A stretch of 64,000 bases of DNA from Cetorhinus maximus. Taxonomy: Eukaryota. Both the position numbers and the translations under genes were made by a program. The DNA lies in NCBI RefSeq assembly GCF_964194155.1, contig NC_135899.1:81654001-81718000 (forward strand), written 5' to 3'. A model generated the notes under the pieces. The model was not told where the DNA came from and did not search any database. It saw only the letters and a program-made list of their open reading frames with translations. Shown here one piece after another: positions 24,601 to 55,199 of this stretch (positions are counted from its first letter, which is position 1; each line of letters starts with the position of its first letter).

Positions 24601-27411
24601 CGTGAGGTTTAAGAGGAAGGCAGGGAAGGGCTCATCAGCTAGAAAGATAACACAGGTAACGCAAGCTGTGAGGAAAGGGTTAAACTGCCGTTGCAGGGAA
24701 AGCAGCCGTAAGGTGAGGAATCCCCATCCCCTTTCATGCAGATTTGGTTGGAAGACCAGTAGACGGGATGAAAATAAATAAACAGCAGGTCAGCAGCGTA
24801 CCTTAAAGGGGAAGACTGGTTTATGTTTCTTTTGGGATCTTCATCAAAGCTGCTTCAGGTCTGGTGAAGGGGACCCAATCGCAGCGTTAACCTATCTTTC
24901 TCTTTCAATGCTGACTTGTTTGTAAATAACTCAATGGGAGATTTTTATTTTCCGCTTTGCCAAAAGAAGCATTGATCTCAGGAAGGGAATAGCTATAAAT
25001 CATTGGAAAGATGCTCTGGGGATAAGGGAGAGAGAAAAAAAGTAGGAGAGACTGAAACTCCATTAAAATTGGCAGTGAATCTTAATTTCAGATCTTTGTG
25101 GCAGTTGGCTTTAGTTCCATGCTGCCAGCCATACTTACCAAAGACATTTCTAGGAAGATATTTCCCTGATAAATATCAATTAGATATTAATGGAGTTGTG
25201 GATGAATGCTCCTCTATTTCTGAACAGGTGATGTAATTTTAATATTATGATCATAGGTCAAAAAATGTTTGGAAATGGAGTTTTAAAAGCAATATAAAAG
25301 AACTAAAGGATAGCAGAACAGCACTGAAAGCTGATTCTGCTGTTGCCAACATAGTACGAGACCATTATTGCAATGGTGATTGCTAGTATGTTCCCTGCTA
25401 CACAATAAAAATTAAATCTGCTCGACTTGATCCGCAGCCATCAATTTTATTTAAAGTCCTTCCTTCCCTGAAGGTGGCAAATTGTGCTGGATTACTTACC
25501 CATTGGCACCTCATCCAAGTGTGAAACCAGACACTCAAACGTGGACAGGCTGTTCAAGGCTGAGAGGAGGGAGGTCCTTGTTGACTGGTCATGTGTGCCT
25601 TAGGATTTGTGCTGACTGGTTAATAGAGTGGGGATGGGAACCAATGGAGGCTCAAAAATGAAAGAATTTATTTATAAAGAGCGTTCTCAAAGGGATGCAA
25701 TTCACACCATGAAGTACATTTTGGAGAGCAGTGACTATTATGCAGGCGAACATAAGGTGGAGTATGGCAATCCATGACTAGCCCAGTGGAGATCAGCTGA
25801 CTCCAAGATAGAACTTGGAAGCTTCCTGGTCTATATGGCTGAGTACCACACCATGCTGAGCTGCTGGCTAGGAAGCCATCAGGAAATAATTACTTCTCCA
25901 TAGTTTCCTTTTGCTTCAGATAATTGAGTTGGCACTACTTCTGCTACTGCTGATCAAGTGTTCAGCTCTATGGGGTCTGCATTGACATCTGCAAGTACCT
26001 TGTGCCTGCGATCGTTTAATGAAGCCCTCCTAATTTTTGCCTATTATCATTAGCGATGTTATAGTGAGGTTATAATCAGTAGTGCAAGCTTAGTTGTAAT
26101 TATGACATTCACTATGATCCCATAAGACCAGACTTCTGTATGGGTGGAAACGCCCGTGTTGAAAAATAATGTATATTGTTACAACCAAGGGTCTGCGTCC
26201 CATTGAAATCGATCAGAAATAGAGCCGTGCGGTTTTATAAAAGCCCCATTCACATTCCTGGGGTGTTCCACTCAGCAGGAAACATTGTTAGCAAATCTAA
26301 AATAATCTAACTGCAAAATGTTTCATTTTCTTCCTCCAGTGACTGTTGCTAACAAACTCCTTGTGTTAGTTTCCTGTTTTAAACACCCTATTACTAGTGC
26401 AGCGATAAATCATTTTAAAACTTGACATGCTCATACTGGGCCCAGGCATCAAGCTATCTATAATGGCTCTTGACAAATCCATTCTACAATTCAAACTGAT
26501 ATGGTTGATATTGATGTCACACTAAAAACCATAGACAAATTAAGTCCTAATGCAACAGAACGTTGCATGCATTGAGCAGCAAGGCTTTTGTTGTGTGACA
26601 TCCACAAGTGGCAAGTGTAGCATTTGCACTCTGGTGTCCCCGGCAATCATTTATAACTGTCAGTAGCTGCGGGAAATGTGACAAATACTGATTACAGCAG
26701 TACAGAATATCCATTAGGGATGGAAGATGTAAAATATGCCTGCATATAAAATCTCAACAACATGAAATGTAAAAGAAATCACGCATTTTGCGGGCCTGAA
26801 CAATTACTCTCGCGCTCTTCCTAAATTTTCAAAATAAACACAGGCGCCTCCTACACAGGGTTAGATTGATTCTTAGCTCACAATTTCCTGCTTTTGATCG
26901 CTCTTTCAGAGAGATGACCTAATGGGACAAACTGTCATCCAGTGCAGCGAGTGCTGACTCAGTCAAAGCATTCAGAAAGACATTGGGGCTGTTTCCTAAT
27001 GCACCAGGGAACAAATGGATATGGGTTTGGCAAGTGAAGCAAGAAGGAAATTAAATGCTTTGTTGGGGTCCAGAGCCTGTATATGAATGATGGGACAAGC
27101 AGGTTAAACCGAATGCCCTGTTCTCATTTCTAATTTTTTACGGTCCGTCCTGATGCATTCATATTTCTGGACTGCAATACAACCTGTTGTAGGAGTTGCT
27201 GCCTTGTGCACTGCTGAATTTCTTCTTATAATGTGGTACAGGGTGGTTACCAGAATTGTGCCAAGGTTTAATTGTGAAGGCTTGAAAAAAAATGATGGCG
27301 TGTTCTACATCGCAGATCATGTAGCCTGTTGTTACTGAATGATTTATCATATGCGCTTTAATGGTCAGAAACATTTGGATATTTTACTTCCTAATTGTCT
27401 TTTCCATTCAG

Positions 27412-29383
27412 GTAAAAGGAAAATACTGCGGATGCTGGAAATCTGAAACAAAAACAGGAAATGCTGGAAAAGCTCAGCAGGTCCAGCGACATCTGTGGAG
27501 AGAGAAACGGAGTTCACATTTGGAGTCCGGCGGTTAACTCTGTTTCTCTGAGTCCGGCGGTTAACTCTGTTTCTCTGCGTCCGACGGTTAACTCTGTATC
27601 TCTGAGTCCGGCGGTTAACTCTGTATCTCTGAGTCCGGCGGTTAACCCTGTTTCTCTGAGTCCGGCGGTTAACTCTGTATCTCTGAGTCCGGCGGTTAAC
27701 CCTGTTTCTCTGAGTCCGGTGGTTAACCCTGTTTCTCTGAGTCCGACGGGTAACTCTGTTTCTCTGAGTCCGGCGGTTAACTCTGTTTCTCTGAGTCCGA
27801 CGGTTAACTCTGTTTCTCTGAGTCCGACAGTTAACTCTGTTTCTCTGAGTCCGACGGTTAACTCTGTTTCCCTGAGTCCGACGGTTAATTCTGTTTCTCT
27901 GAGTCCGACGGTTAACTCTGTTTCTCTGCGTCCGACGGTTAACTCTGTTTCTCTGAGTCCGGCGGTTAACTCTGTTTCTCTGAGTCTGGCGGTTAACTCT
28001 GTTTCTCTGAGTCCGGCGGTTAACCCTGTTTCTCTGAGTCCGGCGGTTAACTCTGTATCTCTGAGTCCGGCGGTTAACCCTGTTTCTCTGAGTCCGGTGG
28101 TTAACCCTGTTTCTCTGAGTCCGGTGGTTAACCCTGTTTCTCTGAGTCCGACGGGTAACTCTGTTTCTCTGAGTCCGGCGGTTAACTCTGTTTCTCTGAG
28201 TCCGGTGGTTAACCCTGTTTCTCTGAGTCCGGTGGTTAACCCTGTTTCTCTGAGTCCGGTGGTTAACCCTGTTTCTCTGAGTCCGACGGGTAACTCTGTT
28301 TCTCTGAGTCCGGCGGTTAACTCTGTTTCTCTGAGTCCGACGGTTAACTCTGTTTCTCTGAGTCCGGTGGTTAACCCTGTTTCTCTGAGTCCGGTGGTTA
28401 ACCCTGTTTCTCTGAGTCCGGTGGTTAACCCTGTTTCTTTGAGTCCGACGGGTAACTCTGTTTCTCTGAGTCCGGCGGTTAACTCTGTTTCTCTGAGTCC
28501 GACGGTTAACTCTGTTTCCCTGAGTCCGACGGTTAATTCTGTTTCTCTGAGTCCGACGGTTAACTCTGTTTCTCTGAGTCCGGCGGTTAACTCTGTTTCT
28601 CTGAGTCTGGCGGTTAACTCTGTTTCTCTGAGTCCGGTGGTTAACTCTGTTTCTCTGAGTCCGGCGGTTAACCCTGTTTCTCTGAGTCCGGCGGTTAACT
28701 CTGTTTCTCTGAGTCCGGTGGTTAACTCTGTTTCTCTGAGTCCGACAGTTAACTCTGTTTCTCTGAGTCCGACGGTTAATTCTGTTTCTCTGAGTCCGAC
28801 GGTTAACTCTGTTTCTCTGCGTCCGACGGTTAACTCTGTTTCTCTGAGTCCGGCGGTTAACTCTGTTTCTCTGAGTCTGGCGGTTAACTCTGTTTCTCTG
28901 AGTCCGGCGGTTAACTCTGTTTCTCTGAGTCCGGCGGTTAACCCTGTTTCTCTGAGTCCGGCGGTTAACTCTGTTTCTCTGAGTCCGGTGGTTAACTCTG
29001 TTTCTCTGAGTCCGACAGTTAACTCTGTTTCTCTGAGTCCGACGGTTAATTCTGTTTCTCTGAGTCCGACGGTTAACTCTGTTTCTCTGCGTCCGACGGT
29101 TAACTCTGTTTCTCTGAGTCCGGCGGTTAACTCTGTTTCTCTGAGTCCGGCGGTTAACTCTGTTTCTCTGAGTCCGGCGGTTAACTCTGTTTCTCTGAGT
29201 CCGGCGGTTAACTCTGTTTCTCTGAGTCCGGCGGTTAAATCTGTTTCTCTGAGTCCGGCGGTTAACTCTGTTTCTCTGAGTCCGGCGGTTAACTCTGTTT
29301 CTCTGAGTCCGGCGGTTAACTCTGTTTCTCTCTCCACAGACGCTGCTGGGCCTGCTGAGCTTTTCCAGCATTTTCTGTTTTTG
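27412..29383. mobile_element. Fold-back insertion of two inverted Penelope 3' ends enclosing a minisatellite
   Basis: Left arm 27412-27529 matches 53438-53560; right arm ~29315-29383 is its reverse complement; flanks TGTCTTTTCCATTCAG (27396-27411) and TGTCTACTCCATTCAG (29384-29399) match 14/16. Confidence 0.8.
27523..29331. repeat. 27-bp minisatellite, 67 units, consensus GAGTCCGRCGGTTAACTCTGTTTCTCT
   Basis: Directly visible; 1809 bp = 67 x 27, so phase is kept end to end. Confidence 0.97.
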
Positions 29384-29579
29384 TGTCTACTCCATTCAGC
29401 CATCTCTATCCCCTATCCGTGTAGCTCTTTATTCCCTTTTCACTCCTTCTGGTTCAGTCTTCTGTATCAGGTATTACATAAATTGGATGTTGCTCCAGAT
29501 CTGAGGTTACCAAGTTGAAACAACATGTAGCTTATGTATTGAGGCAGCAAACCTGCAAGATGGCATGTGATCACAGTGG

Positions 29580-45312: not shown

Positions 45313-46931
45313 TTGGTAACATCTGTAATTTACAATTCATTTAATGGCTTCATTTCACATGCATGTAGCACAACGCTAATTGTGTAAACTTCTTACTGCT
45401 GATCTGATCTCAGAGTCTTAAATGAACACGAGACCTACACGGTATAGCTTAGGCAATTTCCTGTGTCATTGCATCTGTGAAGATAAGAACAAGTGCAGTC
45501 TCCGTGTCTCTGGGTGAAGTATGGTAAGTATAGTATAGTAAGAGACCAGGGTGGGATTGAACCATTGGCACTTAGGAGGAATTCAGTCTCCATCTTAAAA
45601 TCATGGGATAGCTCTTGTCTTTGTGCAACAGTGCAAAACGGGTGCTAGTGGGGTGAAAGATTCACATCTCTCCTGATTTTATTCCCATTGAAGACAATGA
45701 TGCTAAAGTACCAGATTATTCTGCCTTAACAATTCTAATACTTACAAATCATTTTATTCTATTATGTAAATTGAATCTCACTATGACCATGCAATAACTC
45801 CAGTTTCATTAAATACATTTCCAGAGATCTCCTTTTATCTGACAGCTACAAACAGTGGGACCGTGGGTGGGGTGGGGTGGGCGGAGGGGGGAGGTGGGGT
45901 GGGGGTGGGAGGTGGTGGTGGTTAGAAGTAAAAAATTTTATAACATCATCATTATTTTTCCCAGTATTTCACCTGTAAAATGGCATTACCAATGGTAACA
46001 ACTATACAATGTCCTGTACAGTGAAGGCATGTCCTATATAATTTTCTGGAATTGTCTTTTATTTAAAGGTGGACATTAACAAGGTGGCTGCCAAGGATCA
46101 GGTGACTTTTGCCATTTCTGCACAGACAAAGGATTAACTTGTGTCTGAAAATGCCTCTGGAAAGTTCTCAAATGCAAATGGGTTTCGCAGGTGCAAAGGG
46201 GCCTTTCTTACCAGCTCAATGGAAGAGAGCTAACAAACAATGGCTGCCAGTCGTGTTGGATTCATGAGGATGGAATATCAAGTAAGGGCTTGCACTGAGA
46301 TAACTGTAGCTGGAATGTTGATAGGTTATCAATCATTCCTCCATTTTGTACCAAACTCCCCGGCTCCAATCCATTTTGTGGACAATGAGAAGCACTGAAA
46401 CTACCCGTCATGTGACTGAAACTAGCTTAAACACCACCTTCAATGGGCCCACAATGACTGTTTTCTCTACAACATGGGCTATGAACTATACTTCTGTTTA
46501 TAACTTGTAAAAGTGTACTCGCCTCTTGAACTCATCTGCCTTATGTGTGTGTGAGTAACATAGGGCAGAATTTTCTGGCTGGCGGGGGGGAGGGAGCGGG
46601 AGCGGGCATGGGCGGGCATGGGCCCGATCGTTGCTCGTGATTGGGTCTGCGCCACCATTTTATGCAGGTGGGCCAATTAAGGCCCGCCCAGCGTACTTCA
46701 CGACTCCCATGCATAGCGGGAGTGGGCGGGCGCGCCAAGCCCACCGGGTCCAATGGCAACCCTGCAGCTTGTATAAAGGAAAGCCTGGCAGCCTTGGAAA
46801 GACTGCTCGCAACAGCTGGGCGAAGGGCTCTGCAGAGGGGCAATGGAGGTGATGCAAGTCCTGGAAGTGGGCCGTCCGCGAAGAGAATCCAGGTACAAGT
46901 AGCACTAATCAATGCTCTTCTCTCCTTTCAG

Positions 46932-48249
46932 GAGAAGAATGCACAAAATGCCGCCGAGCGGGTGAGGACTGGCAGCGGCCAGACGCAGTCAGCAATTCTC
47001 AGCCGGTTTGAGCAGGAGGCCCTGGATTTGGAGAGGCGCCATGCGCCCAGGTCCACCGGTGTTGGTGAGGCTGGGGTGCCACGGGCAGGTATGTATGTCC
47101 AGCAGTGAGGTCACCATTGTTCTCCCAACAGCCATGGCAATGCTGAATGTTCAGTGATTTAATTTTGCAACATGACTTGACCATTGCTTATGAAAGGATG
47201 AGCGCATAATGATCCGGGGGACAGGGGTGCACATTGATATTGTCTCTACATTAACTGATCCAATGTCCTTGTTCTTCCTTTCAGCATCACCGGAGCAGGG
47301 CCGGGAGGAGGAGCAGCAGGGACCCCCTCTAACAACTGAGGGCCCTGAAGTCTCACCAGTGTCACACCATCTCTGCCAGGCAGGCACCAGTGCAGATACT
47401 GGCCCCTCGGTGAGAATTAGAACATCGGCTAGTGCCCCGGGGTACAGCGGTGAGGGCACTTCACAGTCGCTGGAGGAGCTGGCAGAGACAGAGAGTGCCC
47501 ATGGCTCCAGCAGTCGAAGGACCGCGGGGGACCAGGCACATGCTCAGTCGGTGCCTGATGATGTGTCTGTGGAGTCATCCATGATGCAGCAAACACAGGA
47601 AATGTGGCCGGGTGTGTGGGAGCATCTGGGGGAGATACATGAGGCTAGGCTTGGCTTAGTGTCCGTAGTGGAGGAGTCCACGTGGACTATTGCTGAAGCA
47701 ATGAGCCTCATGGCCGAGTGCCATGCGTCCTCCATGGAGAGAGTGGCGACCCTCATGGAGAGGCTCCTTCAGGAGAACAATCAGGGTTTCCTGGGGATGT
47801 GCTCTGACCAGCAAGCCCTCACATTGGCATTGTCCTCAGCTGGTCAGTGCCAGTGTGGGAGATGGTGTGGGTACCAAGTTTCCCAGCTCGGTGCCCATCC
47901 ATCCACAGTGAGCAAAGAGGTCCGAAGCAACATCACGTGGGCGCAGCAGCTGCCTGTCGTCTCTGCGGGCTCCTCTCAGGGCGCTCTGGATGAGGGCGGC
48001 TGCTCCTCCCCCACTCTGCCAGTGACCGCAGCATCTGGTGAGGCTGCGGTGACTGGGGAGATGCCAGCCGTGGCACTGGCCACTCCCTCCCAGGTGGGGC
48101 CAGAACCAGCTCCACAGGCCAGAGGACGACTGCCAAGGTCATCGAGGCCAACAGGACAGCAGAGTCAGCAGGCTGGCTCAGATGCCACTCCCAGCGATGG
48201 GGCAGCATCAAGACATAGCACCCGAAAATGTAAACATAAGGCACCTTAG
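46932..48249 (+). pseudogene. Harbinger partner (Myb/SANT-family) gene, exon 2 (46932-47088) and exon 3 (47285-48249) open; DNA-binding exon missing
   Basis: tttcag|GAG acceptor, CAG|gtatgt donor and tttcag|CA acceptor are phase-compatible; exon 2 is 157 nt as in the 34.5-kb copy; homologous peptides (SSMERV, VVSAGSSQGALDEG); basic C-terminus TRKCKHK. Confidence 0.8.
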
Positions 48250-48574
48250 GCACACCACGGGTTTATCACTGGTGCTTTTGTGCTGGCCCGAGATGAGGTC
48301 TTTATGATTTGCTTTGAATTGGAACACCTTTGTCATTTTTTTGGCTTAAGTTTCTTTGCTTGTGATATTAAATTCAGACATGTCACCCTGGCTGAGGGTG
48401 CCTCTTTTGTTCTGCAGGTGGATGGTTACCAATAATGTTATGAGTGATTTGTGGGACATTCAGCTTTATTAACAAGGACCTTAGTTAATGTTCCTAACCT
48501 GGCAGATTTGGCACTTAGGTATCAAGTATGGAGCCTACAGCCCAGGCTTGTCCTGGAGGTCCATATGTGGTGTG

Positions 48575-49735
48575 CTAGCTGAAGGTTCGTTGGATTAAAG
48601 CCTCCCGGGTGTCCCTGCCTCCCTGGAGTATGCCCGGGTCAGCGTCTACCCCCTCAGCATTTCCCTGTGCGTGTTCATCCTCAGACTCACTGCTGGACTC
48701 ATCGTGTGCAGCCGCAGACACTGTGTCAACATCTTCATCGTCCACTGCGTCCCCCCTTTCCAGCACAAGATTGTGGAGAGCGCAGCATGCTACCACTATC
48801 ACCAAGACACGATCTCGGGGGTACTGGAGTGCGCCCCCTGAACGCTCCAGGCATCGGAAGTGCATTTTGAGAAGACCGATGGCTCTCTCCACCACAACCC
48901 TTGTGGTGCCGTGGCTCCTATTGTAGTGCTGCTCAGCTTCTGTTCTTGGATGGCGGAGAGGCGTCATGAGCCACCTTCTGAGGGGATAGCCCTCATCACC
49001 CAGCAGCCATCCATCCAGCTGGGCTGGAGCACTGAAGAGCCCCGGCACCTGGGAGTGTCTGAGGATGTAGGCATCGGTGGAGCTGCCTGGGTACCTTGCA
49101 CAGACTTGTAGAATCAGCATCCTATGGTCACACACTATCTGCACGTTCATGGAGTGGAAGCCCTTCCTGTTGACGAAGGCACCGGGCTCACCTGCTGGCG
49201 CCTTGATGGCCACATGTGTACAGTCTATTGCACCCTGGACATGGGGGAAGCCAGCAATGGCCGCGAAGCCTCTGGCTCGCTGAGTCTGGCTTGTCTGGCC
49301 CCAACGGTGGTGGATGAAGGTCAATGCATGCCTGAACAGAGCGTCTGTTACCTGCTTGACACAAGTGTGGACAGCTGATTGGGAGACACCGCAAAGATCA
49401 CCCACCGAGCCCTGGAAGGAGCCAGAGGCATAGAAGTTGAGGACAGCTGTGACCTTCAGAACCACTTGCATGGCGTGTCCACCCACACAGTTAGTGGAGA
49501 TCTCAGGCCCAATCATCTGACAGATATAGTTGTCTGTCTCCCTTGAGAGATGGAGCCTTCTTCGGCACTGCACCTCAGACATATTGAGGTAGCTGCTTCG
49601 CCGCCTGTATACCCTGGCAGCAGGATAGTGGCACCTTCTGCAGCCCCTTCCACCTTGGACAACCTCTTGGCCCTGCGCCCCTTGTGCCTGCGCCTGTCCT
49701 CCCAAAGGTGGCTCCCCTGGAGGCTGAATGTGCAT
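48575..49735 (-). CDS. Harbinger DDE transposase (HARBI1-like, DDE_Tnp_4), 386-aa open frame
   Basis: LNFYASGSFQ..GDLCGVSQS, FPHVQGAIDCTHV, NRKGFHSMNVQIVCD, YPGSSTDAYI, LLGDEGYP, RVVVERAIGLLK..FRCL, ACCALHN. The original start may be ~49809 (MGVELS) with a frameshift near 49740. Confidence 0.93.
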   Translation of the reverse strand: MHIQPPGEPPLGGQAQAQGAQGQEVVQGGRGCRRCHYPAARVYRRRSSYLNMSEVQCRRRLHLSRETDNYICQMIGPEISTNCVGGHAMQVVLKVTAVLNFYASGSFQGSVGDLCGVSQSAVHTCVKQVTDALFRHALTFIHHRWGQTSQTQRARGFAAIAGFPHVQGAIDCTHVAIKAPAGEPGAFVNRKGFHSMNVQIVCDHRMLILQVCARYPGSSTDAYILRHSQVPGLFSAPAQLDGWLLGDEGYPLRRWLMTPLRHPRTEAEQHYNRSHGTTRVVVERAIGLLKMHFRCLERSGGALQYPRDRVLVIVVACCALHNLVLERGDAVDDEDVDTVSAAAHDESSSESEDEHAQGNAEGVDADPGILQGGRDTREALIQRTFS

Positions 49736-50801
49736 TCCGGCCTCCTCCCCCTTCTAGCTCTCCTTTCTCCCTCAGAAGAGGTGCCTCCAGTGGAGAGTTC
49801 AACTCCCATTCCCAGGCTAAGGGAAGGCTTCCTGAAACCTGCAGGCCCAAAAAAGATTCCTCACTGCAGAGTGCTGACCTGAAGATTAAGAGTCCAGACA
49901 AAGCAGCTGTTATGTGTTTTGAAGTATTGCAGATCACACAGGCAAGTTTCAATAACTTAATCAACACTTAAGAGAGCACACTCGCGACCCCAGTGAGCCC
50001 TCTTATCCCGCCCGTGGATGAGGTTTGTGCAAATGTGTCCTACCCGCCTGCCCGTTGCACCTGTGCGCCGACCCGAAGGTTGCACGGGTGCTGAAAAATT
50101 GGTGTCAATTGGTGAGTCAAGGGCCTTAAGTGGCCCGTTAATTAATGGCAGGTGTGCAGTGGATATCATCGTGTGCCCGCCCAATGAAATATTGCGATGG
50201 CACGCGGTGACGTGGGGAACTCGCCCAACGTCACTGCACGTCATTTTACGTGCAGACGTGTGGGACCAGCCCCCGCATGCCAATGGGAAAATTCTGCCCA
50301 TAGTGTTTAGATGTTTGGGGTGAATGCGTGAGTAAATAATCCTCTTTATTTAAACCCGCAAAAGCTTGCTGCTGCTTTTAAATTGGCCGCACCCAGTCTG
50401 GGGGCTAAGAAACACACACATCTTCCAAAATCTTTCAAAAAATGCATTGATTACAGGCGGTAAGGGAAAGGGCACAAGGTTTTCAGTCATCTCCCGACCC
50501 TCTTTGCAGCAATACATATTTTTAAGTACCTGCATGTTGGCAATCATTCCTATCATCTTTGTCATCCTGCCTGCCATTCTGCACCTTAGTTTGTCTCGAA
50601 ATTTAATGGAGACATGAAAAATTATGAATTTGCACCTCTGTGTCATGCCAATAGTTAGATTTTAAAACAAAAGATACTGTCACTTCACGAAGTTTAACAT
50701 GTAAGACGAGAATGGTCAGTCAGGCTGTAAAAAATGAACCGAAATCAAAAAGTGCTGGAAAAACTCAGCAGGTCTGACAGCATCTGTGGAGAGAGAGACA
50801 G

Positions 50802-50840
50802 AGATAACGTTTCGAGTCCGTATGACCCTTCTTCAGATCT
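50802..50840 (-). ncRNA. Minimal type I hammerhead ribozyme
   Basis: AGAT-CTGAAGA-A-GGGTC-ATACG-GACTC-GAAA-CG-TT-ATCT on the minus strand. Confidence 0.8.
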
Positions 50841-50907
50841 GGTGAGTCAAGGGCCTTAAGTGGCCCGTTAATTAATGGCAGGCGCGCAGCGGATATCATC
50901 GACCAAC

Positions 50908-50944
50908 GATCTGAAGAAGAGTCATACGGACTAGAAACGTTATC
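50908..50944 (+). ncRNA. Minimal type I hammerhead ribozyme
   Basis: GAT-CTGAAGA-A-GAGTC-ATACG-GACTA-GAAA-CG-TT-ATC; the closing pair of stem II is mismatched. Confidence 0.75.
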
Positions 50945-51129
50945 TCTGTCTTTCTCTCCACAGATGCTGTCAGACCTGCTGAGCTTTTCCAGCATTTTTT
51001 GTTTTCGTTTCAGATTTCCAGTAGCCGCAGTATTTTGCCTTTGTTATGTCAAAAAAATGAATGGTGCACCACCGTGCATTTGGATATTGATGTACGTTAC
51101 CTTGATGAAATGTTTGAAGTATTAACATG

Positions 51130-52020
51130 TTCAGTCTGTCAGATTTCGAGCTATAATCTCAGTCTGGGAGAAATATGAGGAAGAAGGCAGCAGCGTGTAG
51201 ATTGGGTGGCTCTGGCTTTTGTGCAGCAGTTTCCTTATCTCTATTGCCACCTCTCCCAAGGGACTACCATCGACGAGGAAGTCCAACGCCAAGTCAACTG
51301 TGCCAGGGCTGCCTTCTTCAAGTTGCGCCAACGTGGGCCTTTGACAACAGGGACTTGCGGAAGTCAACAAAGGTTCTGGTTTTATAAGGCTGATGTGTTG
51401 ACCACCCTCCTCTACTGCAGCGAAACATGGACTGTCTACTGACGACACATTGAGATCCTTGAGAGCTTCCATCAGTGGCGCTTGTGTCCAATTCTGGGGA
51501 TCAAATGGGAGGGCCGCCAGACTAACGCGAGTGCCCTCCATGAGTCTACCAGCATCAAAGCCCTGCTCCCGCAGAACCAACTCCGATGGACGGGCCATTG
51601 CTTCCGGAAGCCCAAAATCCTCCTCCCTTGACAGGCTCTCTTCTCACAGGCTCTCCGTTGGCCAACGCTCAAAGGAAAAGGTATAAGGATACGCCCATGG
51701 TCACCTTAAAGCACGCATTAACGCCACTGACTGGGAGGAGAAGGCTGTTGATCGCTCGCCATGGCACCACCGGGTCCATCAAGGCGCCAGCTACTTTGAG
51801 GTTCAGCGACTCGACAGCGAGGCAGAACGGTGCCAGCAGAGGAAGGAGAAGGAAGCCAACCCGGGGCTGCGATTTCCACCCCGCTGCGCAACAACGTGCC
51901 TCCCATTGCGAAAGAACATGTGGGTCCAGAACTGGACTCCTCAGTCATCTGAAGTCTCACCGAGCCTGATGGACGTCATCCTCGATTCCGAGGGACCGTC
52001 GATGGCGACAACGACAATAC
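51130..52020 (+). mobile_element. RTE-clade (BovB-like) LINE 3' fragment
   Basis: IDEEVQRQVNCARAAF; YKADVLTTLLYCSETWTVY; QLRWTGH; QRKRYKD; terminal C2H2-like CERTCGSRTGLLSHLKSH; tail gtcatcctcgattccgaggga followed by short repeats. Confidence 0.85.
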
Positions 52021-53437: not shown

Positions 53438-55008
53438 AAAAGCAAAAAACTGCTGATGCTGGAAATCCAAAACAAAAACAGAAACAGAAATGCCTGGAAA
53501 AACTCAGCAGGTCTGACAGCATCTGTGGAGAGGAAGACAAGAGTTAATGTTTCGAGTCCGTATGACTCTTCATCAGAACTAAAGAGGAATAGAAATGCGG
53601 TGAAATATAAGCTGTTTAAGGGGGGGTGGGACAGGTGGAGCTGGATAGAGGGCCAGTGATAGGTGGAGGCAAAGGAGAGATTGCCAAGGATGTCATAAAC
53701 AAAAGGTCAAAGGGGTGTTGAGGGTCATGATATTAGCTAAAGGATGTGCTAATGGTGACATTAAGGGTAGAAAGCAAGATGGGCAAGTGACAGATGGCCC
53801 TAGTGGGGGGAAGGGATTGAAATAGGCTAAAAGATGGAGATAAAACAATGGATAGAAATAAATTTTAAAAATAATAATAGAAATAGGTGGGGAAAAAAAA
53901 AATATATATATATATAAAAATATATAATAATTATTGGGGAAAAGGGGGTCAAAAAGGAGGTGGGGATGGTGGAGAGAGTTCATGATCTAAAATTGTTGAA
54001 CTCAATGTTGAGTCCGGAAGGCTGTAAAGTGCCTAGCCGGAAGATGAGGTGCTGTTCCTCCAGTTTGCGTTGAGCTTCACTGGAACATTGCAGCAGGCCA
54101 AGGACAGACATGTGGGCATGAGAGCAGGGTGGTGTGTTGAAATGGCAAGCGACAGGGAGGTCTGGGTAATACTTGCGGACAGACCGAAGGTGTTCTGCAA
54201 AGCGGTCACCCAGTCTGCGTTTAATCTCTCCAATGTAGAGGAAACCGCATTGGGAGCAACGAATGCAGTAGACTAAGTTGAGGGAAGTGCAAGTGAAATG
54301 CTGCTTCACTTGAAAGGAGTGTTTGGGCCCTTGGACGATGAGGAGAGGGGAAGTAAAGGGGCAGGTGTTGCACCTTCTGCGGTTGCATGGGAAGGTGCCG
54401 TGGGAGGGGGTTGAGGTGTAGGGGGTGATGGAGGAGTGGACCAGGGTGTCTCGGAGGGAACGATCCCTGCGGAATGCCGCCGGGGGGGTGAAGGGAAGAT
54501 GTGTTTGGTGGTGGCATCATGCTGGAGTTGGCGGAAATGGCGGAGGATGATCCTTTGAAAGCAGAGGCTGGTGGGGTGATAAGTGAGGACAAAGGGATAT
54601 CATGGTTCTGAGAGGGAGAGGAAGGTGTGGGGGCGGATGCACAGGAGATGGGCCGGACACGGTTGAGGGCCCTGTCAACCACCGTGAATGGAAAACCTTG
54701 GTTAAGGAAGAAGGAAGACATGTCAGAAGAACTGTTTTGGAAAGCAGCATCATCAGAACAGATGCAACGGAGGCGAAGGAATTGAGGGAATGGGATGGAG
54801 TCCTTATAGGAAGCGGGGTGTGAGGAGCTGTAGTCGAGGTAGCTGTGGGAGTCAGTGGGCTTGTAATGATTATTGGTGGATAGTCTATCACCAGAAATTG
54901 AGACAGAGAGGTCAAGGAAGGGAAGGGAAGTGTCAGTGATGGACCATGTGAAAATGATGGAAGGGTGGAAATTGGAAGCAAAGTTAATACATTTTTCCAG
55001 GTCCAGCA
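53438..55008 (-). mobile_element. Penelope-like element, 5'-truncated: RT C-terminus + GIY-YIG endonuclease + 3' end with hammerhead
   Basis: FASNFHPSIIFTWS....LPFLDLSV...YKPTDSHSYLDYSSSHP..KDSIPF.QFLRLR.ICS; FTCTSLNLVYCIRCSQCGFLYIGEIKRRLGDRFAEHL...VACHFN...RKLEEQHLIFRLGTLQPSGLN. Confidence 0.93.
53542..53580 (-). ncRNA. Minimal type I hammerhead ribozyme in the Penelope 3' end
   Basis: AGTT-CTGATGA-A-GAGTC-ATACG-GACTC-GAAA-CA-TT-AACT; perfect core and 5-bp stem II; the stem III CG has decayed to CA. Confidence 0.8.
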
Positions 55009-55199
55009 TTACAAACTAACTGAAGTCACTTTCTGTCTACTCTGCATGCTTCTGATGCATACTCCTAATGTCAGTGCTAATGTCCTCACCAAAATGGCAC
55101 CTGTGCCGCTCACACCAAGCGCACAGCAAGGACACCATTTTACACATGGCCAGCACCCATAGTGTTGCAAAAACAGGTGCTGTGCAACAGAATTTTGCA

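Follow-up and report, generated by a model that had tools for sequence, protein, structure and literature searches.

Inverted partners, tails and palindromic junctions have been described for insertions of Penelope-like elements (PLEs) (PMC8557442, PMC3846280), and paired minimal hammerheads on opposite strands, 100–700 bp apart, have been noted as well (PMC4209133). A PLE protein from the anole cleaves and extends both strands, starting at two sites that delimit the tail (PMC11167929). In the accessible text of these papers, the completion of PLE integration and the origin of inverted structures are treated as open questions (PMC8557442, PMC11167929), and a few cases are mentioned in which solo pLTRs with TSDs enclose captured sequence of unrelated origin (PMC3846280). 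By these partial accounts, the architecture and hammerheads that we discuss below are already known. Extra bases at LINE 5' ends are often copied from flanks in a manner that depends on the host cell (PMC4245944, PMC4760211), and the accessible description of L1 templated insertions places the template typically within 15 bp of the site (10.1101/2024.08.27.596794). Patchwork filler is given as a signature of MMEJ/Pol theta, whose inserts are mostly <25 bp and come from break flanks (PMC12426944, in the portion available). Non-LTR retrozymes, as far as their available description goes (10.64898/2026.07.22.740005), resemble the locus studied here in being short, non-coding, PLE-derived and equipped with a type I hammerhead; they differ in that they are tandem and in one orientation, whereas this locus is inverted, single and not re-mobilized as a unit. 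Apparently undescribed is a measurable habit of local capture by PLE insertions: no literature mapping PLE junction inserts to the neighborhood of the target was found in a search that left most subscription journals and supplements outside its reach; the accessible passages of 10.1101/2022.05.23.493040 are likewise silent on the point.

The locus lies in a 64,000-nucleotide stretch of Cetorhinus maximus DNA (the window), where an insertion at 50739-51046 is built from two inverted arms (50730-50839 and 50908-51017, 110 nt each, 92% complementary) arranged head-to-head, with a tail on the right arm only. The left arm (50739-50840, minus strand) reads outward to the left, is tailless and lacks 28 nt of the PLE 3' end; the right arm (50908-51042, plus strand) carries ~28 extra bases relative to the left, which correspond to the known PLE tail (about 51018-51042); we assign the last four bases of the insertion, 51043-51046, to no part. 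Between the arms lies a captured segment of 62 bp (50840-50901, plus strand), a direct copy of Harbinger subterminal sequence that matches positions 50110-50171 at 59 of 62 bases in the same orientation and shares base 50840 with the left arm. Two inverted PLE ends around a Harbinger-matching center, as described in the original prediction, are thus a real structure, except that the center does not directly adjoin the right arm: six bases of filler (50902-50907, plus strand) intervene. The expected imperfect TSD of ~13–15 bp was also found, at 50726-50738 (13 nt, plus strand; the last 4 bases also fit the PLE) and 51047-51061 (15 nt, plus strand), and supports one insertion event. The A at 51051 is absent in two related-species runs, in which the right copy is 14 nt and the TSD copies are more alike. 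Among the best 40 of 1240 candidates scored genome-wide, neither arm-loop junction had a second copy, and we therefore rejected the composite as a mobile unit.

Like EN+ PLE insertions, as characterized in the accessible literature, the locus has an inverted 5'-truncated partner, a palindromic head-to-head junction, a TSD, a hammerhead in the pLTR and a tail, 30–40 bp in such insertions, on one side. Unlike them, it has no ORF, both arms end at one fixed site and the captured sequence is traced locally, as it is for 29 of 46 foreign centers with donors within 5 kb. We take the arms to be PLE ends reading outward because a related end at 53438-53596, 84% identical to the right arm, comes after a GIY-YIG-like frame; inverted partner, one-arm tail and TSD of an EN+ PLE insertion are all present at the locus. 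The related end belongs to a longer, decayed copy of a related PLE subfamily (53438-55015, minus strand), which has the same end and hammerhead and served as reference. The GIY-YIG match has an E value of 0.013 in this copy and 2.5e-4 in another (L179), both below the curated cut-off, and the fragment 54224-55015, which is decayed and not full-length, had no Pfam match to a telomerase-like RT.

Contigs from the same species, which may derive from the assembly's own sample, match both outer junctions with zero differences. Contigs from a related species show 27–28 differences in ~440 bases and also carry both outer junctions, with the left flank continuous into the arm in three of three runs examined and the right flank in two of three; no empty site was found. 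Because the outer junctions are present in both species, the insertion is old, common to a related species that is about 6% divergent, and misassembly is unlikely. Among the matches listed, no contig piece spans the inner junctions, which is uninformative either way.

An exact 17-mer of the PLE end occurs 30,498 times in the 3.99-Gb genome, and at least 647 inverted pairs are present (276 with a gap of 0–9 and 371 with a gap of 10–150), compared with none for reversed-pattern controls and ~9 expected by chance from arithmetic. We fetched 10 kb around 76 pairs, this locus included (50 listed of 75, plus 26 new among 50 listed of 57), using sampling patterns that select arms ending at the hammerhead. 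Six of the 76 were not true pairs, and the remaining 70 were analyzed. One arm was tailed in 52 of the 70, both in 13 and neither in 5, and a TSD of at least 10 was present in 27 of 70 true pairs versus 0.7% of shuffled pairs.

We scored a center as foreign if it contained at least 40 non-PLE bases and a donor as local if it gave at least 40 bits within the pair's own flanks, within 5 kb. In the first set, 36 of 70 pairs had a foreign center, and 20 of these 36 had a local donor (19 of 35 without this locus); the expectation was 1.0 from other loci and 4.2 from random windows of the same locus. Of 19 matches obtained with a second anchor, 15 were new; 10 of these had a foreign center, and 9 of the 10 had a local donor, with 0.57 expected. 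Local copying is systematic in this genome, as copying from nearby DNA had been proposed for the single locus; centers of inverted pairs are variable and their donors are local far above chance. The 29 copies are 26–227 bp long (median 83 bp), and the 29 donors lie 59–3278 bp from the outer junction (median 572 bp), and only 1 of 50 centers matched sequence within 100 bp of a junction. Donors are found to either side of the insertion, 21 in direct and 8 in inverted orientation, which leaves splice capture of host exons unsupported. Among 15 one-tail pairs, by our own count, the donor was on the tail side in 7 and on the other side in 8, with no link between the two.

For 16 of the 36 foreign centers in the first set there was no local donor. 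By reading, 6 of these hold further PLE ends; 2 donor-less centers have borderline local matches (33–35 bits), and several are dispersed repeats. Two centers (L092:4913-5000 and L126:4913-5249) matched only themselves in a genome-wide search and may represent either target DNA that was kept or copies of a donor since lost. We also observed unlinked or distant pairs with the same short center (L109/L110 and L115/L134), whose probable source is the PLE body or a shared repeat.

Repeats are no more frequent among donors than expected. Seven of the first 20 match another locus versus 7.2 expected from random local windows, as judged by a proxy limited to repeats present in the fetched DNA (0.94 Mb); three of nine centers in the second set match several other loci, a count made without a control. 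The loops thus look like random local sequence with no TE enrichment, the sequence half of the outcome that had been named as counting against a spacer function, and neither an excess of transposons in the loops nor selection for transposon sequence finds support.

Where the arms stop bears on what was joined. In 42 arms unselected for upstream sequence, 27 end within 7 nt of an anchor beside the hammerhead core and 15 continue, with none ending between 8 and ~28 nt. In 12 of the 15 longer copies, a TATA-like word is located at −26 to −31, counted from the A that opens stem I. Within the window, positions 53577-53620 exemplify the pile-up of arm ends, 26–31 bp downstream of such a word. Among 50 listed of the 276 short fusions, judged by eye, the commonest centers are GC (13), ACTGT/ACAGT (6) and ACT/AGT (5), and a gap-free fusion exists in the locus's own PLE subfamily; the GC and ACT/AGT centers and the gap-free fusion fit self-annealing of ends that reach the first A of stem I. 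From the pile-up, the TATA-like word and the self-annealing centers, we infer an RNA start at the 5' edge of the hammerhead, and it seems reasonably probable that the RNA would begin at the A just before stem I, at a TATA/Inr-like start. Both arms stop at this edge, probably the RNA's start, and the inner end of the left arm lies 3 nt beyond the anchor TCAGA, at this putative start. On the start-site reading, the RNA would open directly with the ribozyme. The arm-stop site also resembles a 3' splice acceptor; the accessible parts of two studies (PMC4209133, PMC2377424) place the end of a D. virilis intron at helix I. Because both cDNA ends are fixed at one site in stumps of this kind, the centers read out the joining step directly, and this step can be counted, with at least 647 pairs in one genome and dozens that have a mappable local donor.

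We are confident of a core that the leading explanations share, namely a twin-arm insertion that received local, unselected filler. As to the route, we lean moderately toward a single PLE insertion in which both cut strands primed reverse transcripts and a host repair polymerase bridged their ends via DNA ~560 bp away. In this scheme, the PLE endonuclease would cut both strands ~13–14 bp apart, RT would start at the two known initiation sites to give a tailed and a tailless arm, and both cDNAs would run off the 5' end of the RNA, with its TATA/Inr-like start just before stem I. In most cases, the cDNA ends would be joined by annealing at a short palindrome or with a few bases of filler; sometimes one end would instead prime on nearby genomic DNA, copy 26–227 bp and rejoin, and the product would then decay neutrally. 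Among 40 junctions, 12 were flush or overlapped by 0–3 bases, 22 had 1–15 filler bases and 6 had longer filler, and several fillers were copied from the arms. A host polymerase is favored because this patchwork resembles the MMEJ/Pol theta signature.

The resemblance to Pol theta end joining, as set out in the accessible text, extends to overlaps of 0–3 nt, short iterative fillers, both orientations and flanking templates. By contrast, inserts there are generally <25 bp, and here the median is 83 bp. Copies that are longer and farther than usual (medians of 83 bp and 572 bp) argue against plain Pol theta. LINE templated insertions, to judge from the available accounts, likewise copy <250 bp of near-target genomic DNA into a junction, but L1 templates typically lie within 15 bp rather than at 59–3278 bp (median 572), and the insert here stands between two cDNA ends instead of between cDNA and target.

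Capture lengths and distances that exceed those typical of Pol theta, together with captures that begin a few bases from the inferred RNA end, would also suit a PLE RT that itself jumps from the RNA 5' end to nearby DNA or a local nascent transcript and returns once the copy is made. According to the accessible part of one study (PMC11702581), DNA can serve as template for extension by L1 ORF2p, and templated inserts of genomic DNA occur among L1 insertions. We regard such a jump as possible, with the odds against it: filler patchwork is found at most junctions, LINE extra bases are host-dependent and the accessible text of PMC11167929 reports no DNA-templated jump. From sequence alone, a jumping RT and a host polymerase would be inseparable.

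The distances themselves may contain a clue. Near edges of 10 of the 29 donors (loci L082-L146 and L213-L226, this locus included) lie 558–657 bp from the insertion, with none at 375–557 or 658–1098 bp. Simulated P values under log-normal and exponential models were 0.001 and 0.0001 when near edges were counted, 0.13 and 0.02 with midpoints, and 0.74 and 0.29 with far edges. Because the 558–657 window was chosen after the first 20 donors, with 3 of 9 in the second set at 580–657, this post hoc cluster is a hint and a lead only. It leads to a tentative and rather doubtful proposal in which PLE integration has its own capture step: cDNA running off the capped 5' end would reach DNA at a preferred distance and copy ~80 bp, and the arms would then be joined. 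If so, each capture would preserve a trace of resection geometry or local chromatin and wrap a sample of neighboring DNA in a ready hairpin.

Timing is relevant to another alternative, in which the arms first fused as a perfect palindrome whose tip later broke and was repaired with a local templated insert. Direct fusions are common (the 276 pairs with a gap of 0–9), and loop-donor and arm-arm divergences are uncorrelated pairwise (rho 0.09), as a later break would allow. One pair (L145) also shows signs of homogenization after insertion. Its center (L145:4913-5085) is a perfect 75-bp inverted repeat that is foreign and repeat-derived, matching a dispersed repeat at 81–88%, and its arms are identical near the center and diverge outward, which suggests that this pair was homogenized later, from the hairpin tip outward. 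Mean divergences, however, are close (8.5% for loop-donor and 9.5% for arm-arm), which implies little delay between insertion and capture, and arms are uneroded at the center, even though the sampling patterns select for that. We therefore consider a later break improbable and return to the host-polymerase bridge, with the question of which DNA it would have copied at this locus.

The likely donor (50110-50171, plus strand) lies ~555–560 bp from the TSD and 128 bp inside the right end of a Harbinger/PIF-type DNA transposon (46563-50299, minus strand; 3.7 kb) with TIRs at 46563-46590 and 50272-50299 and an ATA TSD. The element encodes a DDE_Tnp_4 transposase (48575-49753, minus strand; 392 aa, open; Pfam E value of 5e-38) and has an open frame of 351 aa on the opposite strand (47194-48249, plus strand) without a Pfam match; opposite-strand Harbinger frames gave no Pfam hit to a Myb/SANT-like second protein. 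A DDE_Tnp_4 transposase, TIRs and a 3-bp TSD are what we take to be the defining traits of the PIF/Harbinger family. The element is whole and keeps an open transposase frame, though its end is CpG-decayed.

Naming the donor by identity alone failed. Distant Harbinger copies match the loop as well or better (97–98% versus 95% for the neighbor); among 30 sampled copies, one beats the neighbor (60/62) and three tie. In 61 of 62 columns the loop carries the base most common in the family, and the donor's minus strand could belong to a transposase transcript, so Harbinger RNA or a younger distant copy might be considered as the source. Yet a family copy within 1 kb would rarely occur by chance (about 2e-4 to 6e-4 by arithmetic from a density of 427 exact 20-mer copies in 3.99 Gb), the only non-majority loop base, an A at 50880 found in 7 of the 30 sampled copies, is common to the neighbor, and 28 of 45 other foreign-center pairs have a local donor, mostly of non-repeated DNA. 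Family rarity, the shared minority base and the genome-wide local pattern favor the neighbor as donor, and a distant or RNA source is quite unlikely. A longer loop match at another locus (L009) looks like a chance overlap in a shortened Harbinger copy.

At the three positions that differ between loop and neighbor (50883, 50885 and 50890), the loop always has a C followed by G and the neighbor a T, the CG-versus-TG pattern reported in the original prediction, and C is the family majority at each. The further claim that the captured copy preserves a meaningful pre-decay state did not hold up, since CpG was kept 13 times in loops and 13 times in donors among 20 pairs. The 3-to-0 polarity of this locus is chance, and both its Harbinger content and its "pre-decay" state look like chance.

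Each arm was expected to contain a hammerhead, and motifs are present in both, on opposite strands. They were called by motif pattern and by the model of PMC4209133, in its accessible part. The left motif (50802-50840, minus strand) is a minimal type I hammerhead with an intact core, a stem I of 4 bp and a stem II of 5 bp with one G-U; the conserved core, the extra base after position 9, the G10.1-C11.1 pair and the palindromic 15.2-16.2 are all present. The right motif (50908-50944, plus strand) is damaged, in that an A for C at 50933 breaks G10.1-C11.1 and stem I is reduced to 3 bp. An Rfam scan of 49500-52000 gave no match to a hammerhead family; a match to MIR5048 (60 bits versus a gathering score of 160) reflects the hairpin only.

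In 20 mutually related copies of the motif, stem II is fully paired in all 20 when G-U is counted, and pair 2 of stem I is T-A in 10, A-T in 4 and unpaired in 6. One PLE subfamily (L147-L176, window 50799-50840; 76 exact matches) has exchanged T-A for A-T on both sides of stem I, a compensatory swap that hints at selection on the fold.

A ribozyme that works within the hairpin is a different matter. The predicted fold-back has a free energy of ~-199 kcal/mol (z of -24 and -27), each hammerhead would be buried in its duplex, and forcing stem II within it is computed to cost 21–25 kcal/mol, which leaves a working ribozyme in the hairpin unsupported. Transcription of either strand would produce the antisense arm ahead of the hammerhead. 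Minimal hammerheads need to dimerize and cleave weakly, according to the accessible text of PMC4209133. In RNA runs, the share of the locus's sequence words present was at most 0.10. A functional repeat-spacer-repeat device, in which the hairpin yields small RNAs against Harbinger through ribozyme processing, could draw on the great stability of the hairpin if transcribed and on the age of the insertion, but we consider it extremely improbable given the absence of repeat enrichment, the symmetric CpG loss (13 versus 13), the position of the Harbinger part in the loop rather than in a duplex, the leading antisense arm and cost of stem II, the need of minimal hammerheads for a dimer, the damaged right motif, an inferred promoter that was not copied and the lack of a second junction copy among the best 40 of 1240 candidates. 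A defense-like function of the hairpin is not supported; the loop is likely to be repair filler and not an anti-transposon guide. PLE captures can be seen as adding local duplications, each enclosed by inverted repeats, at a small but steady rate.

A Pfam scan of 84 window frames (107 listed) found three RVT_1 matches and one weak repeat family; no host gene was recognized in these 84 frames, a scan that short exons would escape. Elsewhere in the window (27368-29515), frames of 630–700 aa are open on both strands between PLE ends that face each other (27415-27529 and 29315-29387), and this region is probably an inverted PLE pair with a tandem array within it.
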